Shown here: positions 24,346-63,939 of the stretch, one piece after another
How positions within the stretch are numbered: the stretch's first letter is position 1
How the letters are laid out: each line of letters begins with the position of its first letter
IMG/VR virus record: IMGVR_UViG_3300024518_006178
Location: 1 to 64,000 of that record
Length of the DNA: 64,000 nucleotides
Strand: one strand, 5' to 3'
Source: a virus
Notes under the pieces: model-generated
The model's database searches: none
The model's input: the letters and a program-made list of their open reading frames with translations, nothing else
What the model was told of the DNA's origin: nothing
Made by a program: the position numbers and the translations under genes

Positions 24346-26151
24346 TTACTCATGCAGTTCCTCCAAGAAAACGGACCGTTCCATCATGCGGTCCTTGCCC
24401 CGATACAATCGCTTGCGCACGTGCGACAAGACCAGATCGCCCATTGACCGAGACATGCCGACATACAGTAGTCGACGCTCCTCTTCAACGAGATCGCGCT
24501 TTTCATCAGTGTCCGCCATATTATTCAGCGGGAACATTAGATTCTCAAGGGCCGGGATGAATACCACGGGAAATTCAAGGCCCTTTGAGGCGTGCACCGT
24601 CATCATGCGGACGCTATCTTCATCTTCATGAATGTCGTCCTGGCTAGTGACCTCGTGCAGATGCTCCAGATAGTTTTCTAGAGTTATCTCGTCCGTGCTT
24701 CCGGCGCGCCATTCTCCGATAAAATACAGCAGGTCCCACAGGCTTTTACAGCGCGACTCCAGGCCCTCGGCTTCATACACGTCATCTAGCCACTTATGTG
24801 CAATTAGCACCTGATCTTCGAAGCTGGCGTCGTGAAGCTTCTTTATGTCGAGTAGCCACTGTGTATCCTTCAGGGTTCTCTCCCTGTAGTAGAGAAGCGT
24901 GGACTCCAGAAGCGTTATGTTTGCCGACGCCGCTCTGGCCTTGATGGTGGCGATTTTGGATCTGCTCAGCCCCAGGTGGGGCATGCGCATGACCTGCTCA
25001 AACGGCAGCTCATCCAGAGGATTGCGAGCAAGCTTAAGCAGGGAGTGAAACAGTCGCACTTCCTCCAGGTCCAGGAACTTGAGCCTGGTGCCAGCAATGA
25101 CGACAGGTATATGTTGACTGGACAGGTTCTGCGCTATGTGTGACTCCACAGCATGTGTGCGACACAGCACGGCTATATCCTTAAAGGGCACGCCCTTGGC
25201 GGACAGGCCCTTGATTTTGGTGGCAATGCCAGCGGCCTCTTCATCCTCGTCGTCAAACACCCTGATAGCGAGGTTTCCGTCGGTCTTTGTGCTTACCAGG
25301 GTCTTGGCGCTGCGATTGTAGACATTGTTGGCGATAAGCCTGTTGCAGGCGTCGGCTACGACAGTAGGGCAGCGATACGTAGTGTTCAGGATCACGTCTT
25401 TGTGCTTGGGGAACGCCATCTTCAGTCGCTCGATATTGCGAATCTCAGCCCCACGGAAGCCGAAGATGGTCTGATCAATGTCGCCGACCGCGAACACGTT
25501 CTTGTGTTGGTCGGCCACCATCTTTGCTATGGAGTAGTCCTCTTGGCTCGTATCGTTCATCTCATCCAGGTGCACATACCTGAACATGTTGGCGTAGTAC
25601 TTGACCGACTCGGGGTGCTTCGTGAACAACTCTATGGTCTTGCTCAGAAGCATGTCGTAGGTCACGGCGTTGTTCTTTCTGAGCCGTATCATGACCTCGC
25701 GGAGCACGCGCGCCCGGCTTTCAGGCACGGTGCCCCTGTGGAACTCATTCAGGAACGTCTTGGGCTTTGTCTTTATGTGAAGATCCTGATGTACCGCCTT
25801 GATTATGTCCATCAAGTCACGGTCATCATATACGCTGAAGTTCTCCTTTAGCCCGGCCTTGAAGTACCAGGTGTAGAGGACTCTGACGCAGAAGGCGTGG
25901 ATCGTTGTGATCCACAACTGGCTGGCGACTGTCTCGCCGAGCGCCTCTGTGAGGCGCGTCCTCATCTCCTTGGCCGCCGCCTTCGTGAAGGTGAAGGCCA
26001 GGATCTCTTTGGGTGAGGCCCCGTGGTTTTCCACTAGGTTGATAATGCGTGAGACGAGAACCCGAGTTTTTCCCGAGCCTGGCCCCGCCGTCACGAAACA
26101 GGACGTGATCGTGTCTACTGCTTCTTGCTGTTGCTGGTCGAGGGTGACCAT
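24346..26151 (-). CDS. UvrD/PcrA SF1 helicase
   Basis: AGPGSGKT, FTFTKAAA, DE.ND, VGD.DQ.IFGFRGA, TVHASKGLEF, EERRLLYV. Confidence 0.92.
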   Translation of the reverse strand: MVTLDQQQQEAVDTITSCFVTAGPGSGKTRVLVSRIINLVENHGASPKEILAFTFTKAAAKEMRTRLTEALGETVASQLWITTIHAFCVRVLYTWYFKAGLKENFSVYDDRDLMDIIKAVHQDLHIKTKPKTFLNEFHRGTVPESRARVLREVMIRLRKNNAVTYDMLLSKTIELFTKHPESVKYYANMFRYVHLDEMNDTSQEDYSIAKMVADQHKNVFAVGDIDQTIFGFRGAEIRNIERLKMAFPKHKDVILNTTYRCPTVVADACNRLIANNVYNRSAKTLVSTKTDGNLAIRVFDDEDEEAAGIATKIKGLSAKGVPFKDIAVLCRTHAVESHIAQNLSSQHIPVVIAGTRLKFLDLEEVRLFHSLLKLARNPLDELPFEQVMRMPHLGLSRSKIATIKARAASANITLLESTLLYYRERTLKDTQWLLDIKKLHDASFEDQVLIAHKWLDDVYEAEGLESRCKSLWDLLYFIGEWRAGSTDEITLENYLEHLHEVTSQDDIHEDEDSVRMMTVHASKGLEFPVVFIPALENLMFPLNNMADTDEKRDLVEEERRLLYVGMSRSMGDLVLSHVRKRLYRGKDRMMERSVFLEELHE

Positions 26152-29348: not shown

Positions 29349-31454
29349 TTACAACTCAACGGGCGTGCCCATGTCGTGAACACGCCACCCTTTATACATA
29401 CCTTGAGTGGCTGCCATATCAGTGACTCGCTCGTTACATGAGGCGAGCATGACATTGTCCAGCCCACCCGCCACGTCGTCCAGTGCTTTAACGAGGAACC
29501 CGAAGCTGTTCGCGTCGAGCTCCGCCGCCTCGATACAAAGCGCCTTGACAGGCGGATCTGCGAGCTGGATCAGCGCGACCACGAGGGCTGCGCCAAACAG
29601 GATCTTCTCGCCTCCGGACAGTGTGAGATACGGTATCTTGATCGAGTTCTCGACCTTGAAGATCTCAAAGACCTCCTTGCCGTTTCTGTCGAACAGGTTG
29701 AACTCGATCTTGTACCCGTGACTCTTCAGGAGCTCGTTGACCTTCTTCCTGATTGGGCCAACCACGTCCTTCATGATCTTGGACTGCAAGCCCTTCGGCC
29801 CCAGCGCCTTGGCCAGACCGACGGTGCTTTCCATCGTCTCCTCGGCCTCGGCGATCTTGGCCACACACTCCTGGAATTGATGTTCAAGATGCTGCGCCCT
29901 CCTGGCCTTCCTTAGGCGCTCTTCCAGGGCGTCAATCTGGGTGGTCATGGTCCTAAGAAGCACATCTGCGGCCCCGAGGCCGACAGGTGCCGCTGTTCCG
30001 TCGAGGATGGTCTGGTTCTCCCCCTTGGCCTTGCGCAGATTGACAAGAGCATTCGCATGCTCCTCATTTCGCCGCTGCGCATCCTTGGCCTCGAATCGCA
30101 GCTTGTTGAGGTCGGCCTCCTTGAGCTGCAACGCCCTGGTCTTTTGGGCCCGGCTGTCGCTGAGGCTGTCTCGCATCTCATATGCAGCCCTCCACGCATC
30201 ATGGGTGCTCCGGCGTGCCTCGGCGTGATGCCCGTCCAGGGTGCTTTGGAGGTCCTGCGCCTGCTTTCGAAAGCTATCCTGTGTGTCGCCAAGTTTGTCG
30301 AGCATGCCATTAAGGAGGTCCTGTTCAACCGCATCGGGCCCCATAATCTCATGGAGCAGAGGCAGAACAACTTCGTTAATTGTATGAATCTTTGTGTCGC
30401 ATTCCAATATTGCTTTGGCGCAGGCGTCGCTGGAGTCGTCAGCCTTGTTCCACAGCTCTTCTTTTTCTTTGGCATCAGAAGTCGCCGTTAGTACCGCAGC
30501 TTTGAGCTCCTCGACCTCCTGCCTTATGGCTTCCTCGTGACGCTTCGCCTGCTCAACTGCGGTCTTGGCGGCTTCAATGTCGGGCAGCTTGTCGGCCACC
30601 TCCTCCACAGCAATTAGCTCGCCCTCCAGGGCGCTCCTTTTGGCGATCAAGGATTGACGGGTCGTGCCCATTACCTGAGCCCCCGCCATCTCTTTCTCGA
30701 TCTCAGTTTTCTGTCCACGAAGCTCCTTCAGTTGACCATCAAGAACTTGGGGGTCTTCGTGCTCCTCCATCTGTGCCGTCTGCTTTTCTTCAAGTAGGCT
30801 GTCATGCGACTTAGCTAGGGATCTAACCACTGCCTTGAGGTCAAGCGCCTCCCTCGTGAATATGTCCACCATGCTGGCGAGGTTGTCAACAACGTTGACG
30901 TTGTCGCGCCAGCGCTCTTGAACCCACCCGTGATGGGCTTCGGCGATACCCTCGAAGGCTTTGGCCTTGTCCCACCCCAGTTTCTCGGGTGACGACAGTC
31001 CAAAGACGAAGTCCCGCTTCCTGGTGTCGGACATGCCCAGGAACTCGTCGAGATCGAACATGATGCTGAAGCTGCCCACCTCGTCGACGATGGCCTTCTT
31101 GCGCTCCTCGTCGTTTTGTGCTCCGTGAGCCCTCGAAGAGTGGTGTTCCGTTCTTGTCTTATGGGTGACGGACCCGTCCTTGTGTTTGGTCTTCGCCCTT
31201 TTATATATGCGGCTGAACGTAGATCCGCCCTCAAGGCTGCCCAGCACGAGTAGGTGGTCCCCCGTGGAGACCTGTAGAATTGAGTCCGCCGTCTTGCCCA
31301 CCTTGGGCAGGTAACCGCTCAAGAGGAGCGTTAGCGCCTCAAGATATGTCGATTTTCCAGAGCCGTTCGGGCCGACAAAGATCTCCCGGCCCGACAGCTT
31401 TGTGTCAAACGATGCGCCCTTAAAGTTCTGGACGCTTAGTTCCTCAACCTTCAT
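29349..31454 (-). CDS. SbcC/Rad50-like SMC ATPase
   Basis: Walker A GPNGSGKS, long coiled coil, LSGGE signature, atypical Walker B (CIEAAELD). Confidence 0.8.
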   Translation of the reverse strand: MKVEELSVQNFKGASFDTKLSGREIFVGPNGSGKSTYLEALTLLLSGYLPKVGKTADSILQVSTGDHLLVLGSLEGGSTFSRIYKRAKTKHKDGSVTHKTRTEHHSSRAHGAQNDEERKKAIVDEVGSFSIMFDLDEFLGMSDTRKRDFVFGLSSPEKLGWDKAKAFEGIAEAHHGWVQERWRDNVNVVDNLASMVDIFTREALDLKAVVRSLAKSHDSLLEEKQTAQMEEHEDPQVLDGQLKELRGQKTEIEKEMAGAQVMGTTRQSLIAKRSALEGELIAVEEVADKLPDIEAAKTAVEQAKRHEEAIRQEVEELKAAVLTATSDAKEKEELWNKADDSSDACAKAILECDTKIHTINEVVLPLLHEIMGPDAVEQDLLNGMLDKLGDTQDSFRKQAQDLQSTLDGHHAEARRSTHDAWRAAYEMRDSLSDSRAQKTRALQLKEADLNKLRFEAKDAQRRNEEHANALVNLRKAKGENQTILDGTAAPVGLGAADVLLRTMTTQIDALEERLRKARRAQHLEHQFQECVAKIAEAEETMESTVGLAKALGPKGLQSKIMKDVVGPIRKKVNELLKSHGYKIEFNLFDRNGKEVFEIFKVENSIKIPYLTLSGGEKILFGAALVVALIQLADPPVKALCIEAAELDANSFGFLVKALDDVAGGLDNVMLASCNERVTDMAATQGMYKGWRVHDMGTPVEL

Positions 31455-33314: not shown

Positions 33315-33377
33315 AAATTGGCCTCCTTTTGGGTTTCGGCTAAGCTTATACCATAAATAAGAGAGGGTCTGTTTGTA

Positions 33378-58010: not shown

Positions 58011-59357
58011 ATGCCTACACCGACTGGCGTAACGATGACGATCAACACGGGCGACGAGGCCACAAACGACCTCGACGTGACCCTGAGCATCGCCGCCACA
58101 GGCGCGGATGAGATGCGCTTCTCGAACAACGGCGGCTTTAGCTGGTCGCCGTTCGAGGCGTACGCCACATCCAAAGCCTGGAACATGTCCGACTTCGATG
58201 GCTTGGCCAGCGAGGGCATTAAGACGGTCCTCATGGAGGTCCGGGATCTTTTTGATGACGAACGAGCCCAGGTAACGGACTTCATCCTCTTCGACGTGCC
58301 CGTCCCCAGGATCGTTTTTGATGCGCTAACACCGCCGTTTCAGAGGTCGGACACCAATATAGTCGAAATACCCTACGCGGGATTCGAGGACTCCCTGGCG
58401 GCTGCTGACGCCGTGGCTCTTCTTGGTGCAGAGATTGATACCAGCGGGCTATTTACTGGGGGTGAATTAGACCTTCTGGAGCTCCCTGGCGACTCCCTGA
58501 ATGACGGAAGGGTGGGCCTGCTCTTCTCAAATGCGGGAGAGAGCCTGGTCTTTGTGGCGGATCTCCTCGGAACATTTGGCATGGAGATCGCCAGCGCTGC
58601 AACACGTGTCCGCCTGAAGCCCCAGTTCGGGTCGAAAACCGGCGACTGGGCTGTGTCCCCGGCATTTACCATTCAGATACAGGATCCTCCTGTCACTGAG
58701 GAGCTGGGCCGGAAGACGATTCCGGGGCGCGCTATCACGCTCGTGGCCTATTTCCGGAACGCCCTCAATGAGCTTGAGGACCCCACGGTTGGCCCGACCC
58801 TGGAGGAGGTTTTGGACTCGACGGACACCGATCAGCTCGGTGGGTCTGTTCCAATGGTGTCGACGGTTGCTGGGGTATGGACCTATAGCTTCACGCCAGC
58901 GGTCACCGACCCGGTGGGGCAATGGCGATACAGGGTCAGCTACGAGATGGGGGGACCCGTTGGCGCAGAAGAGCTGCTGGGATTCTTCATCGTAGAAACC
59001 CCCACCGTGGCTTCGTTCCCGCTTCAGAACGACACATGCGTGCTGTACGGCGATCTGTTTCTGGGCGACGGAATGCCCTTCGAGAATGCGCTGGTCCAGG
59101 TCGCGCCCCACCATTTGTCGGATCCCGAGCTGGGGAATACGACCAGCGTCTCTACCTCGCGCAGGGAAGTTCTTACGGATGCAAACGGACATTTCGAGAT
59201 AGAGATGATCAGGAATACAGAGGTAGTGGTGCGAATTCCCGATCTGGGCTACAAGCAGTTCGGTAAGATACCCGACGATGACGCCGCCGAGTACAAGACT
59301 ATTACCACCCTGCTGCCGACCGGCACGCGAGATAAGTTCGGCAACAGGGTCCCATAG
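58011..59357 (+). CDS. Ig-like multi-domain virion protein
   Basis: IN.G...TN..DVTLS, MRFSN; C-terminal domain paralogous to 57392..58000 (TDANGHF). Confidence 0.55.
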   Translation: MPTPTGVTMTINTGDEATNDLDVTLSIAATGADEMRFSNNGGFSWSPFEAYATSKAWNMSDFDGLASEGIKTVLMEVRDLFDDERAQVTDFILFDVPVPRIVFDALTPPFQRSDTNIVEIPYAGFEDSLAAADAVALLGAEIDTSGLFTGGELDLLELPGDSLNDGRVGLLFSNAGESLVFVADLLGTFGMEIASAATRVRLKPQFGSKTGDWAVSPAFTIQIQDPPVTEELGRKTIPGRAITLVAYFRNALNELEDPTVGPTLEEVLDSTDTDQLGGSVPMVSTVAGVWTYSFTPAVTDPVGQWRYRVSYEMGGPVGAEELLGFFIVETPTVASFPLQNDTCVLYGDLFLGDGMPFENALVQVAPHHLSDPELGNTTSVSTSRREVLTDANGHFEIEMIRNTEVVVRIPDLGYKQFGKIPDDDAAEYKTITTLLPTGTRDKFGNRVP

Positions 59358-59359
59358 CT

Positions 59360-59392
59360 AAAAAAGGGGGGCGGCAATGCGCCCGCCCCCCG
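59360..59392 (-). terminator. intrinsic terminator closing the retron operon
   Basis: GGGGGGCGG/CCGCCCCCC stem plus T6 on the minus strand. Confidence 0.7.
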
Positions 59393-59396
59393 TGTA

Positions 59397-59585
59397 CTAC
59401 CTCTTCTTCATTCGAGTCCCGGTCAGCGTCAGCACGCTGCTCGGCTCGAACATCATTGGGTCAGAGTCTCCTTGTTTGTTAGACCTGACCCTCTTCGCGA
59501 TCTGCGCGCCGAAGTACAGCGCGGCACCTAAATACATCGAAACCTCGATGCCAACATCGACCCAACTAACAGCAGTTCTCTTCAT
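59397..59585 (-). CDS. small single-TM protein
   Basis: GGAGG RBS; hydrophobic VGIEVSMYLGAALYFGAQI segment. Confidence 0.5.
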   Translation of the reverse strand: MKRTAVSWVDVGIEVSMYLGAALYFGAQIAKRVRSNKQGDSDPMMFEPSSVLTLTGTRMKKR

Positions 59586-59633: not shown

Positions 59634-59972
59634 CTACTCAGGAATCGTCATAGGGATACCATTTAGCGACTTTTCCTTAGGGTCGATAAGCAACGTTCGG
59701 TCAAGGACCTCTCCTTCTGATGGGTCACTGACCTTGCCAGACTTCTTCGAGCTTCCGGTCTTGATACGACGGTATAGCTTGTCGTCTTGAAGTTGCTCGA
59801 TGAGGGCCTGCATCCTTTTCACCGTTTTCACGCAGGCTCGCCTTCTTGCAAGAGTGACCTCGTCCAGATCTTGAGTGCTCATCATCCGTGTGATCTGGAC
59901 GTGCTGACGGGACGCCTCTTCCATCTGTTTTGTATATACCCTAATTAGGATCTCTCTTTCTAGTTTTGTCAT
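59634..59972 (-). CDS. 112-aa basic helical protein coupled to the RT (candidate retron accessory)
   Basis: ATG overlaps the RT stop (ATGA); GGAGGT RBS. Confidence 0.6.
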   Translation of the reverse strand: MTKLEREILIRVYTKQMEEASRQHVQITRMMSTQDLDEVTLARRRACVKTVKRMQALIEQLQDDKLYRRIKTGSSKKSGKVSDPSEGEVLDRTLLIDPKEKSLNGIPMTIPE

Positions 59973-61318
59973 ATCAGTAGGACCTCCCACTGCGTTTTCA
60001 TTCTATTTGTTCTTTCCGGATTCACCATTTGGAAGAACGCTAGGTTTCCGGACACCCATCCGGTGAATCTTTTGGGCGACACGCCCGCCTTTTTGGCCGC
60101 AGCCGGTATACCCAGTACCTTGGCGTTGTGGATCGCCGCTCGCACGCGACGGAACTTCTGGCGAGAGATATTGGGCTTCTCGTTTGCCACGAGACCTGTT
60201 ACCCACTGTCTGCGCCCCCTTCTCATGATTTTGGTCTTTGCCTCATTCACCTGGAATCCCTCCTCTGCGACTATCCGTTTTACGACGCTGATGATGCCAT
60301 CCACGGCACCGAGGACGTAATTAGGGTTGTCTGCCCTGCTGAACGAGAAGGTTATGTCGTCCGCGTATCTTGTGTACGTCCACTTTTGGCGGCCCAGGTA
60401 GCTCTGTAGCTTCTTGTCTAGGCGGTAGGTCACCATGTTGGACAGACGTGGGCTGGTCGGTGCCCCCTGCGGCAGAGCGCCCTTCCATGTGGATATGGCC
60501 GTGATTATTCCGGCCACCTTAGTGTCGAGCCCCACGCTTTTTAGGGCTCCGAATACGCGCGGGAACCCAATCGAAGGGAAGAAGTCCTTTAGGTCTAGGC
60601 TGATCACAATGTCCTTACCCGAATGCCGCTCGGCATTCTCGCGAATGCTAATGCCGGGCTCAAATCCCACGGATGCCGGATGGGCTGGGACCTGATAGAG
60701 GACGTGTTCGAGTATGGCTTTTTGCAGCCACTTGAGTGCGCTGTTCGGGGCGGTGATCTCTCGCTGCCCTGTTCCGTTCCTTTTCGGGACGAACCAACTG
60801 TGGTACAGCGTTGGGTCCTTGTGGGCTAGACGCCTCAGCATCCAGGTGATAAGTCGGTTCTTTCTGCCAACAGCCATGGCCAGATCGAACGACGTTTTTA
60901 AGTCCGAGATCTTTATGGTGGGAACCTTGACCGGCTGAGAGATGATGAAGCCATACTCCTCATTCATAGGAGCGCATCTCTTGCATACCGCCTTCTTCAT
61001 GGGGTAGCAGATCTTGTAGTGCGTGCAGGCACCACAGATCGGGGACGCCAGCCAGTTCATGCAATTGCGACGATTGTTCTTGTTGTTGTGTTGCCAGCAG
61101 GCGAACCTATTGGCACAGGCTTCACATACGGAGGCGTGCGTCTTGCCGCCCAGGACAAACGGTGTGCTCCAGAATATCTTGCTGACAGTTACGGCACCTT
61201 CGTAGCTTTTTTCCGCAGGGGTTGTCTGCACGACCCCCTGGCTCGACTTCACTTTCCTCAAGAATACAGGGTGTCGCTGCCCTTTGTGATCAAGGAAATA
61301 GCAGTCATCTGGCTTCAT
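59969..61318 (-). CDS. retron-type reverse transcriptase with Cys-rich N-terminal domain
   Basis: PKR.G..REI.AP, NAERH (region X NAxxH), DLKDFFPSI, LPQGAPTSP, YTRYADD, VTGL (region Y). Confidence 0.92.
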   Translation of the reverse strand: MKPDDCYFLDHKGQRHPVFLRKVKSSQGVVQTTPAEKSYEGAVTVSKIFWSTPFVLGGKTHASVCEACANRFACWQHNNKNNRRNCMNWLASPICGACTHYKICYPMKKAVCKRCAPMNEEYGFIISQPVKVPTIKISDLKTSFDLAMAVGRKNRLITWMLRRLAHKDPTLYHSWFVPKRNGTGQREITAPNSALKWLQKAILEHVLYQVPAHPASVGFEPGISIRENAERHSGKDIVISLDLKDFFPSIGFPRVFGALKSVGLDTKVAGIITAISTWKGALPQGAPTSPRLSNMVTYRLDKKLQSYLGRQKWTYTRYADDITFSFSRADNPNYVLGAVDGIISVVKRIVAEEGFQVNEAKTKIMRRGRRQWVTGLVANEKPNISRQKFRRVRAAIHNAKVLGIPAAAKKAGVSPKRFTGWVSGNLAFFQMVNPERTNRMKTQWEVLLI

Positions 61319-61323
61319 ATCTT

Positions 61324-61733
61324 CAGCTCCTATCTTTAGTTTCCAATCGTCTAGGTTGCCAAATATCTCGAAATGGCTTTACTCGCAGAGTAAATGCATG
61401 AGAGATATTGTCGCAATCGTAAGTGTGTGTCGAGAACGATAGATCCCAGACGGCGAGACGCCGTCACAATATACATAGGAGTTGCTAAGGCAGGCCTGCT
61501 TTACTTGGCGCGGCGGCTGGATGCGTCCGCCGCCTCGGCGGAAGCATCTCTTCCTAAAACCGACGCAATTAACACGTTGTGTTGTGGAGAAACAAAAGTC
61601 CACCAGGGGCGAAGCGCCCCTGTAATGTACCAGGCCCTTGCTTGACTATACGTGGTCCACCCAGATTGGACACGGCATCACAAAATACTCTTCCGTAACG
61701 GCGATGCGCCGTTGAAATACACCAAGGGCTTTA
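61324..61733 (-). ncRNA. structured leader / second ncRNA domain upstream of the RT
   Basis: At least 8 hairpins, three of them GGCG-N3-CGCC; anti-SD pairing to the RT RBS; no credible ORF. Confidence 0.55.
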
Positions 61734-62025
61734 TCTACCGGCTGGCTGCTAACGGACCCCTTTGCTTTCATGGCTGGTCAGTAAAGATCCAGCTTTCTAT
61801 GCGCGGACGCAAGGCGACCGTTGGACGTAGCGAGGAGCAACGAGGACAGCATGCGCAGCGTGATCCCGCAGTTGCCCACAGCGGTGTCCGTAGGTCGCCT
61901 GAGTACGCACAGCGGAAAGCGTTAAGGATCTTTCGAGACCTGCCCTGAGGGGTTTTGTCGTCTATTTCTCTGTGGAGGCCGAATCGGTCCCCGCCTGCCC
62001 GCTAATGGGCTACCCAGCCGGTAGA
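61734..62025 (-). ncRNA. retron msr-msd ncRNA
   Basis: 12-bp terminal inverted repeat (61734-61745 / 62014-62025), two short msr-like hairpins, long interrupted msd-like stem at 61756-61953. Confidence 0.78.
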
Positions 62026-62037
62026 ATGGAGGACGGC

Positions 62038-62772
62038 CTATTTCATTGGAATAAGCATCAGCCGCCACCCTAGTTTATCCGTCTTGACCCACCAATTGCG
62101 CGATTCTGTTTCGACGGCGCACTTTAGTGGAAGACTGCGGTGTACCGGGCAGTCTTCCATGTGTATCTCGAAGTACCCGTCCTTGTTCTTAAAGCACTTG
62201 TTTATGTGGCCCAATTCTCCATCAAGATCGACGCGTCTTCTTTTGCGGACGCATTCCCGTAGCTTGCTGCGAAAATCAGCAAAAGGCTTTAGTTTGAAGC
62301 GTGTCTTTACCTGGACCTGTATGGCATACGCATGTATTGCCGTCTGCCATGCGGGGTAGTACGTCGACTGAGCGGAGGCGTCCCCTATGCAAATATCTTC
62401 GACGTTATAGTCGATCACACACGGATCCACCAGATATTGCATCATATACGGCCTTCGCTCTTCGGCCAATGAGGGCACCCTTGCATCTACCCAGATCTCA
62501 TCCCCGCTATTGGATTTATCTACCTGCACGATCTCTGGCAGTGCAATGGGCTTGGCGTCACAGAGCCATTCGATTGGCTCCGATAGACTCTTGCAAAGCG
62601 TCAGGGAAGTCATCGCTGAAAGCTTTGCGATGCTGAACCCCTTCTCTTGGCCTTCCATGGCGTGCTCACAGGCACGAACCTTTTGAATGTCATGCGCATG
62701 CTTTGCGGATCTTAATTGCTCCCTCAATATCGCCATGACTCGGGGGGCAATGTCTTGATATGTTGCTGTCAT
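62038..62772 (-). CDS. hypothetical protein directly upstream of the retron ncRNA
   Basis: AAGGAGG RBS; 244 aa. Confidence 0.65.
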   Translation of the reverse strand: MTATYQDIAPRVMAILREQLRSAKHAHDIQKVRACEHAMEGQEKGFSIAKLSAMTSLTLCKSLSEPIEWLCDAKPIALPEIVQVDKSNSGDEIWVDARVPSLAEERRPYMMQYLVDPCVIDYNVEDICIGDASAQSTYYPAWQTAIHAYAIQVQVKTRFKLKPFADFRSKLRECVRKRRRVDLDGELGHINKCFKNKDGYFEIHMEDCPVHRSLPLKCAVETESRNWWVKTDKLGWRLMLIPMK

Positions 62773-62800
62773 GAGCGTCCTCCTTCGTCGCTCTTATACC

Positions 62801-62831
62801 AAAAAAAGGGCGGGGGTCACCCCCGCCCTTA
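62801..62831 (-). terminator. intrinsic terminator immediately followed by a GGTATAAG motif
   Basis: AAGGGCGGGG/CCCCGCCCTT stem plus T7. Confidence 0.7.
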
Positions 62832-62838
62832 AGTTTGG

Positions 62839-63939
62839 CTATTGAAGCCACTTGCCGAAGCGAGTAGTGTTGTAGATCATCTGTCCAGCCACGTTTTGCA
62901 GCTTTTCCTTGCGATCCATTGAAATCTCCGCCAGCGCGCCTGCCATCGCAATGGCCTGCACGGCGTCGAACAGAGTGACGGTCGTGGCCACGTTCCAGAA
63001 CTCCTCGACCGCCCTTCGTTGGCCTATATCCAGGGCGAACGCATCGAAGACGCGCTCCCTGAACTCATCAGGGTCCAGGATCTTTACGTGTTGTGTGGCC
63101 TCGACTTCGTTGAGGCTCGCCTCCATCTTCTCGATGAGAAACTCGACGGAGGCCTTGAACTCCTTGTCGAAGTCCTCCTTCTTCTTCAGATGTGTGCGAC
63201 GGAACCCCTGGTATCCCGTCATGATAACGCCAGTGCTGTCCGTGGCGTTCACGGTGAGTAGCTCGCATGCGAGGCTGCCGCAACCGATCTCGGAGTTCTT
63301 CAGTCTGATGGCCCCGTGAATCTCCTTGCCGCAGATCGTGCGCACCATGTCCGGGTTGCGCAGATCCACGTACAAATTCGTCGGGGAATGGGTGAACGTG
63401 AGCGACCATCCGGGCTGGTTCGGCAGGTAGCTGGACAGCAGATCCATGGCCTCAATGTGGTCGTAGACCTCGTAGCGACTGGTTAGGATCCCGCGAATCT
63501 TCTGTGCCCCAGAGTTCTTGTCGAACCGAACGAACCACTTCTTGTTCTTGGGCATGTGGTTCAGCCAGTGATTGGCATGGGCGTCCAGGCGATCTCCGCC
63601 AAGACCTATGGTCTCCATGCAGCGCGTGAAGTACATGAACGGGATTTTCAGCCGCTGACAGAACAACTGAACGGCATGCGGCTCCATGGGGAACATCGCC
63701 GTTACCCCATCCTTCTGATCTTCTGGGACATTGGGGTCATCCAGCATATTCAGAAGGCTGGACCGAATCAGGGTGGGATCCGGGTGCTGTCTGCTCAGGG
63801 TGAAGTCAAATACTTCGATCTCCTCGTCCGAGTAGAACTCGGCGCGAGCGGCCAGGAGGTCCTTGAAGTCGGGTATCGTAATTGGTGTGTCATGGAGACT
63901 GTGTTGCTCCATCGTTTTGGTCGGTGTTGTTGTCACCAT
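62839..63939 (-). CDS. DUF932-like phage protein
   Basis: A..QL/FC.RL.IP..Y, RG.L[TS].RY, L.NSE.G.GSL, RRTH motifs. Confidence 0.6.
   Translation of the reverse strand: MVTTTPTKTMEQHSLHDTPITIPDFKDLLAARAEFYSDEEIEVFDFTLSRQHPDPTLIRSSLLNMLDDPNVPEDQKDGVTAMFPMEPHAVQLFCQRLKIPFMYFTRCMETIGLGGDRLDAHANHWLNHMPKNKKWFVRFDKNSGAQKIRGILTSRYEVYDHIEAMDLLSSYLPNQPGWSLTFTHSPTNLYVDLRNPDMVRTICGKEIHGAIRLKNSEIGCGSLACELLTVNATDSTGVIMTGYQGFRRTHLKKKEDFDKEFKASVEFLIEKMEASLNEVEATQHVKILDPDEFRERVFDAFALDIGQRRAVEEFWNVATTVTLFDAVQAIAMAGALAEISMDRKEKLQNVAGQMIYNTTRFGKWLQ

Follow-up and report, generated by a model that had tools for sequence, protein, structure and literature searches.

Positions 62025 to 61734 on the minus strand of the window probably hold a genuine retron msr-msd, which would give an msDNA of roughly 200–220 nt. 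This long unit is most likely the first and largest of four tandem modules that are transcribed together with a phage-borne, type XIII-related retron reverse transcriptase (RT). The window is the whole stretch of 64,000 nt that was analysed, and it lies within a 76.8-kb IMG/VR virus record that is ~56% complete. The record is myovirus-like, and its genes include those for a tail sheath, a baseplate wedge and a tail fibre, together with an SbcC-like protein and a helicase. An integrase was looked for and not found in the 76.8 kb of this incomplete record.

Known retrons serve in bacterial defence and pair each RT with a single template RNA. To our knowledge, tandem retron templates have so far existed only as an engineered design, and our literature search found no description of a natural retron array or of a retron in this phage clade. 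If the locus is active, it would be a natural retron that uses several templates in tandem.

Fold and parts of the long unit

The first-pass annotation had described a long msd-like hairpin at this site and had proposed that its fold be compared with shuffled controls. In that comparison, the 292-nt unit (62025–61734, minus strand) has an MFE of −129.5 kcal/mol, versus −104.6 ± 4.7 kcal/mol in 200 dinucleotide shuffles (z −5.26). The plus strand of 61734–62025 has an MFE of −136.2 kcal/mol (z −5.19), and none of the 200 shuffles folded as well on either strand. The two strands are indistinguishable by folding energy or by the number of G-U pairs (6 vs 7). We assigned the unit to the minus strand because of the orientation of the RT and the 5′ position of the msr-like hairpins. 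The label msd-like also proved apt: an RT is encoded in the same operon, the layout is that of a retron, and it agrees with the layout of units in a related phage (L082) and in cellular type XIII-like loci.

A perfect 12-bp inverted repeat closes the unit. Its a2 arm, UCUACCGGCUGG (62014–62025), is fully complementary to the a1 arm, CCAGCCGGUAGA (61734–61745). A Watson-Crick helix of at least 12 bp that abuts a given base arises by chance at ~2e-4 of positions in this genome. The parts follow one another as in a retron, in the order a2, G, msr hairpins, long msd rod and a1, with the msr stem-loops standing 5′ of the long msd stem-loop. The RNA closed by a1 and a2 is on the same strand as the RT and upstream of it, across a long gap (415 nt). 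Two short msr-like hairpins had been noticed at 61997–62010 and 61974–61992, and both are present in the MFE fold. Hairpin 1 (61997–62010) is GCCC-AUUAGC-GGGC. Hairpin 2 (61974–61992), GGGGACCG-AUU-CGGCCUCC, is a divergent member of a triloop-hairpin family, as judged from the fold and from a gapless alignment to seven other hairpins. An A/U-rich linker of 20 nt (61954–61973) can be read from the sequence beyond them, and this is where the RT would be expected to terminate.

The msd rod, the predicted template of the msDNA, occupies 61756–61953. The rod of about 200 nt made of short helices, as first described, is recovered in the MFE fold as 198 nt with 68 bp, in helices of 1–8 bp. Every helix that had been named for it is found where it was placed, examples being ACCCC/GGGGT, GGTC/GACC, AAAGATCC/GGATCTTT, GCTTTC/GAAAGC, GGCGACC/GGTCGCC, GGAC/GTCC and GGGCAAC/GTTGCTC. 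There was no match to an Rfam retron msr family in the sequence. Two small ORFs overlap the RNA region (61652–61948 on the plus strand and 61379–61603 on the minus strand), and we treated them as non-coding because neither has a family match.

Perfect 12-bp terminal inverted repeats bounding an imperfect 292-bp palindrome could also mark an element that acts at the DNA level, such as a miniature inverted-repeat transposable element, a replication origin or a packaging site. We consider this extremely improbable. In the 76.8-kb record, neither the terminal 12-mer nor the element as a whole occurs a second time. An exact search of IMG/VR with a2 and the msr gave no match, and neither did a blastn comparison of the entire RNA region with 50,697 phage records. 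The element is also asymmetric, with small hairpins on one side only, as in retron RNAs. The transposable-element version was rejected, the element being single-copy and its flanks carrying no target-site duplication.

For the retron reading, the position of the priming (branching) residue can be predicted. G62013 and G62010 had both been put forward as candidates, and the former now appears the most likely. It stands immediately 3′ of a2, and the priming G of retrons directly follows a2 (PMC6868368). In alignments with the other units, from phage and from cells, it also falls on the G of G-UA or G-CAA. G62010, three bases after G62013, is a possible alternative that lies in a UAGC context; the usual context of the priming G is TAGC (PMC6868368). 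At the other end, the base of the RNA adjacent to a1 on its 5′ side, and so the first to be copied, is G61746. Both this G and the AT-rich linker agree with a retron census, in which RT termination usually precedes an AT-rich region (10.1101/2024.01.25.577267).

Copying from 61746 to ~61955–61970 would yield an msDNA of roughly 200–220 nt. For comparison, the msd and product of Mx162 measure 162 nt (PMC6868368), and if the locus is active its msDNA would be longer than the classic products of 162–163 nt. The fold of the plus-strand DNA (61746–61958) has an energy of −47 kcal/mol (z −3.7). The predicted DNA hairpin contains 72 bp and 20 interruptions, among them eight 1×1 mismatches and five 1-nt bulges. 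Long natural templates of this kind are of interest for making DNA in cells with retrons.

Reverse transcriptase and tandem modules

The RT gene (59969–61318, minus strand; Pfam RVT_1) encodes a retron-type enzyme of 449 aa with a Cys-rich N-terminal domain. Its top matches in PADLOC, NCBIfam and the PDB are all retron RTs. The best PADLOC model is RT_XIII with 302.9 bits (the next-best model scores 271 bits). The NCBIfam model retron_St85_RT scores 233.8 bits, just under its cut-off of 235, and the nearest solved structure is the Ec86 RT (E 4e-43). A DRT2-type or other defence RT was rejected, the Drt2 and Drt3 models scoring only 37–39 bits.

The enzyme belongs to a clade of 12 metagenomic proteins that are 48–60% identical over their full length and are encoded on contigs of up to 125 kb. 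Identity to the RT is 49–60% for P0002–P0009 and 48–49% for P0011–P0012. The motifs NAxxH (N228, A229, H232), YADD (Y318–D321) and VTG (V373–G375) are invariant or nearly so in the 12-member clade. The N-terminal domain (residues 1–115, 60974–61318) holds eight invariant cysteines within residues 65–112, arranged as two CxxC-x5-C...C sets. This domain is specific to the phage RT clade; cellular relatives lack it, and their alignment begins only near residue 127. In the AlphaFold model the RT core is confident, whereas the Cys-rich domain has a pLDDT of ~30. Searches with clade-specific peptide patterns returned one chance match (L322, without an RT) and two RTs from outside the clade (L323 and L325).

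Three smaller modules, u1–u3, tile the 415 nt that separate the long hairpin from the RT. Each of them is closed by a helix of 6–7 bp adjoining a G, contains a triloop hairpin of the form GGCG-NNU-CGCC, and closes when folded. Module u1 (61634–61729, minus strand, 96 nt, z −1.9) consists of a2 GCCCUUG, G61722, a triloop hairpin at 61697–61713 and a1 CAAGGGC; its closing helix has 7 Watson-Crick bp abutting the G (chance 0.02). Module u2 (61492–61637, minus strand, 146 nt, z −4.05) has a2 GGGCCUG, G61630, a triloop hairpin at 61604–61622, further hairpins and a1 CAGGCCU. Six Watson-Crick pairs and one G-U pair abut its G, and 6 bp would be found by chance with a frequency of 0.08. Module u3 (61324–61484, minus strand, 161 nt, z ~−2.9) comprises CAACUCCUAU, G61474, a triloop hairpin at 61449–61465 and AUAGGAGCUG. 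In its closing helix 9 of 10 bp are paired, 7 of them abutting the G. The upstream CCUUAGCAAC in u3 resembles the cellular consensus, and the priming G of this module is ambiguous.

When G-U pairs are allowed, a 7-bp helix abuts a given base by chance in ~20% of cases, and only the Watson-Crick figures and the tiling were given weight for u1–u3. Since chance helices are common, the three small modules rest on combined signals and not on any single helix. The closing helix of u3 covers the ribosome-binding site of the RT through AUAGGAGCUG, and folding of the RNA or its reverse transcription could thus gate RT translation.

A triloop hairpin is present in all four modules, the long unit included. 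Eight such hairpins from two phages align without gaps, with 98.2% of cells paired and 10 cells changed on both sides of the stem; none of 500 shuffles reached either value. Across the whole record, triloop hairpins of this kind with stems of at least 6 bp cluster in the RNA region. The earlier hairpin reading holds for the long unit. It had missed the four tandem modules, the fact that units of 204–311 nt are normal for this RT lineage, and the divergence of its conserved msr hairpin, the greatest in the family, with failure in a covariance-model test.

Related phages and cellular type XIII retrons

Viral, metagenome and genome collections were scanned with the clade alignment, and two phages, L082 and L083, were among the matches listed. 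The RT of L082 (IMGVR_UViG_3300037247_001602, a 94-kb viral contig) is 49% identical to that of the window, and the RT of L083 (a 163-kb viral contig) is 37% identical. In both phages the RT is syntenic with ORF366 and with a convergent gene for a 448-aa protein, and homologues of ORF112 and ORF62 are found in L082 as well. In the window, L082 and L083 alike, the RT unit is bordered by ORF366 (62839–63939; a weak match to PHROG 1362, of unknown function) and the 448-aa protein (58011–59357). The RT thus keeps its genomic place across three large phages, which suggests that it does something of benefit to the phage. If active, the locus would mean that a clade of large phages, with 12 related metagenome RTs, keeps a retron at a fixed place, and the question would be what the reverse-transcribed DNA does for the virus.

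Like the window, L082 carries several modules within this syntenic neighbourhood, each with a2-G-UA, a triloop hairpin, a variable hairpin and a1. Two of its units, A and C, fold in the classic order a2-G-msr-msd-a1. Unit A (145 nt, z −8.15) has a closing helix of 9 bp. In unit C (168 nt, z −5.74) the closing helix has 8 bp and runs into the RT start codon, which the last a1 arm of L082 overlaps. Unit C repeats the plan of the long unit, with G-UAGCCC, hairpin 1, triloop hairpin 2, an A/U-rich linker, a rod and a1. Unlike those of the window, the L082 units measure 145–168 nt and have almost perfect stems that can reach 16 bp or more, and none resembles the interrupted rod of 198 nt. In L083 the RT is immediately preceded by coding sequence, and the triloop hairpins are missing.

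L082 differs from the window in a further respect. Nine GGAAAGGTAGGC repeats occur at L082:3944–4802, between retron-like units before the RT. They are spaced 53–93 nt apart (the last follows 337 nt on), and each is followed by a different hairpin that is unique to its interval. These repeats could serve as promoters or mini-modules, or could offer the AGCCUA a2 arm other a1 arms to pair with.

Two features alone served to pick cellular RNA candidates at 160 loci: a stable fold and, upstream of the RT, an inverted repeat of at least 10 bp with arms 150–330 nt apart. This gave 79 cellular units, 39 of which carry GG[CT]G-NNN-CGCC at 28–78 nt into the unit (L001–L321, for example L309:4398–4416). 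The hairpin is often preceded by CUU(A)GCAAYCC. This triloop hairpin at 28–78 nt is a simple signature that may help to annotate type XIII-like RNAs. One of the loci, L309 (Hyalangium), is a complete type XIII retron with a WGR/HEAT-ARM protein (WGR_XIII, 961 bits), SWIM_XIII (784 bits), the RNA and RT_XIII (620 bits). Three L082 units share the hairpin core of L309, GGCGUUUCGCC, without a single difference. Because the hairpin is shared with cellular units, L309 among them, the phage RNAs appear to descend from the type XIII kind.

In size, the long unit (292 nt) is near the top of the 39 cellular units, which span 204–311 nt with a median of 233 nt; one of them is longer. It is the family's most fragmented member. 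It contains 23 helices versus a maximum of 18 in the 39 cellular units, and its paired fraction is 0.66 versus a cellular median of 0.76 (n = 39). Its longest inner helix has 8 bp versus a cellular median of 18 bp, with 2 of the 39 cellular units at 8 bp or less.

A covariance model, R1, was built solely from 38 cellular msr segments. In a search over 86 kb, its three best matches fell on hairpins of L082 and u3; each was on the same strand as the RT and ahead of it. With filters off, R1 gave 11.6 bits for u2, 11.2 bits for u3, 7.8 bits for u1 and −0.2 bits for the hairpin of the long unit. The lineage-specific form GG[CT]G-NNN-CGCC is absent from the long unit. Its hairpin, ACCG-AUU-CGGC, differs at three of the eight positions that are invariant in cellular units, through an A·C mismatch and a G-C to C-G swap, and it retains the shape and the CG-NNU-CG apex. 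From its sequence, the RT may recognise this hairpin less well or not at all.

These differences would suit a long unit that is a diverged, largely inactive paralogue, with the RT copying u1–u3 and the hairpin being a decaying duplicate or having a role as RNA only. R1 recognises u1–u3 and not the long unit, three of its eight invariant hairpin positions are changed, and the fragmentation of its rod could mean decay. The long unit also stands 415 nt from the RT with three better-matching modules between them, and in L082 the best-formed unit is the one that touches the RT start. Duplicated msr/msd copies without a nearby RT have been reported for Ne160 (PMC6868368). However, decay would not preserve a perfect closing helix of 12 bp, stronger than that of any other unit. 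The rod remains 5 sd more stable than shuffled sequences, the hairpin keeps its shape and apex with a compensatory swap, and the module layout is intact. We regard an inactive paralogue as unlikely, though as the chief alternative to a working unit.

The comparison of the phage system with type XIII retrons (the group of Mx162, Mx65, Sa163 and Ne144; Mestre et al. 2020, PMC7736814) shows both likenesses and differences. Both have RT_XIII as the best model, an N-terminal extension on the RT, a long RNA closed by a1/a2 and a triloop hairpin shortly after the priming region. The phage RTs, however, score 303–325 bits with RT_XIII, with a margin of ~30 bits, whereas true type XIII RTs (L261 and L309) score 527–620 bits with a margin of more than 220 bits, their next model being at ~300 bits. 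Unlike type XIII retrons, the phage system has a Cys-rich N-terminal domain, resides in a myovirus-like phage rather than a chromosome, has four tandem modules instead of one, and has a far more interrupted rod. Among the neighbours of the RT there was no PADLOC match to a SWIM partner, and no SWIM domain (PF04434) was found in the incomplete 76.8-kb record; none of the neighbours matched a WGR or HEAT/ARM partner in PADLOC. With its small RT_XIII margin and no partner genes, the phage system is, on its sequence, not a regular type XIII member.

Retrons are known from other phage genomes, namely the retronphage phiR73 (Ec73) and the 186-like prophages that carry Ec67 and Ec86 (PMC6868368). Those carriers are temperate and of the P4/P2 type, with other retron types and a single short RNA, whereas the record studied here is large and myovirus-like.

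Transcription unit and possible role

On the minus strand, the unit runs in the order terminator, GGTATAAG, ORF244, ~700 nt of non-coding RNA, RT, ORF112, ORF62 and terminator. Its 5′ limit is the intrinsic terminator of the upstream gene ORF366 (62806–62830; an 11-bp GC stem followed by a T run). The only Rfam match, to suhB/mmgR (25.4 bits, below the gathering score), was dismissed, its site being this terminator. The promoter-like motif GGTATAAG lies between the terminator and ORF244 (62793–62800). The 76.8-kb record contains it 10 times, always on the minus strand (for example 62793–62800, 33345–33352 and 65659–65666). Most copies come after a T-rich run and before a ribosome-binding site, and the motif is present also in L082 and L083. 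From these occurrences, GGTATAAG is likely to be a promoter element of this phage group.

ORF244 (62038–62772, minus strand) is the first gene of the unit and ends 13 nt before the a2 arm. It has no Pfam, PADLOC, NCBIfam or PHROG match, the ESM Atlas was uninformative, and no homologue stands at the equivalent place in L082. ORF112 (59634–59972, minus strand) encodes a helical, basic protein, and its start overlaps the RT stop (ATGA). A homologue occupies the same position after the RT in L082 (E 2e-6). ORF62 (59397–59585, minus strand) encodes a small protein with one hydrophobic segment and is a candidate effector. Its homologue, also after the RT in L082, matches over the hydrophobic segment (E 1e-4). 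Neither ORF112 nor ORF62 matched a PADLOC effector model. Their conservation after the RT suggests a retron with a small effector, and makes both of them candidate partners. The unit ends at an intrinsic terminator (59366–59391, minus strand; a 9-bp GC stem followed by a T run).

The place of the long unit within this transcript, between ORF244 and the RT and with no promoter motif of its own directly before it, would also fit a structured RNA that is not reverse-transcribed. Such an RNA could be an RNase III site or stabiliser that separates the ORF244 and RT messages, or could exert transcriptional or translational control. Long imperfect RNA stems are typical processing sites, and both strands of the long unit fold equally well. 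This explanation, however, leaves unaccounted for the closing helix that abuts a G, the two msr-like hairpins at the 5′ end, and the likeness to L082 and to cellular type XIII-like units. We judge it very unlikely.

If the long unit is instead a working msr-msd, the a2 and a1 arms would pair, and the RT would dock on the msr hairpins and prime from the 2′-OH of G62013. It would then copy the RNA from G61746 through the rod and stop in the A/U-rich linker near 61955–61970. The product would be a branched msDNA of ~200–220 nt with a hairpin interrupted about every 3–4 bp. The msDNA-RT complex probably works with ORF112 and with ORF62 and its single hydrophobic segment, an arrangement that would resemble other retrons in which an effector is held in check.

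Multitrons are engineered tandem msr-msd arrays that are copied by a single RT (10.1101/2023.07.17.549397). The phage array shares with them the tandem msr-msd units on one transcript and the single RT. Multitrons, however, are synthetic constructs that derive from retron Eco1 and contain donors for editing, whereas the phage array is natural and its activity putative. In a bolder form of the retron reading, the locus would be a natural multitron of a large, probably virulent phage. One RT would copy the four tandem modules into distinct msDNAs, one of them a mismatch-rich hairpin of ~200 nt. The phage would turn these DNAs on its host, perhaps to distract defence proteins that act in mismatch repair, cut hairpins or sense DNA, and would not use them as the guard of an abortive-infection toxin. 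We hold this version to be quite unlikely as a whole. The role as a decoy or MutS sponge within it, which the first-pass annotation had suggested, is physically possible and speculative; it fits the mismatch-rich geometry, and nothing more.

Among the other genes of the phage are those for an SbcC-like nuclease subunit, of the palindrome-specific type, and for a DNA helicase (29349–31454 and 24346–26151). The presence of a hairpin-cutting nuclease in a genome with a predicted long hairpin msDNA may be a coincidence.
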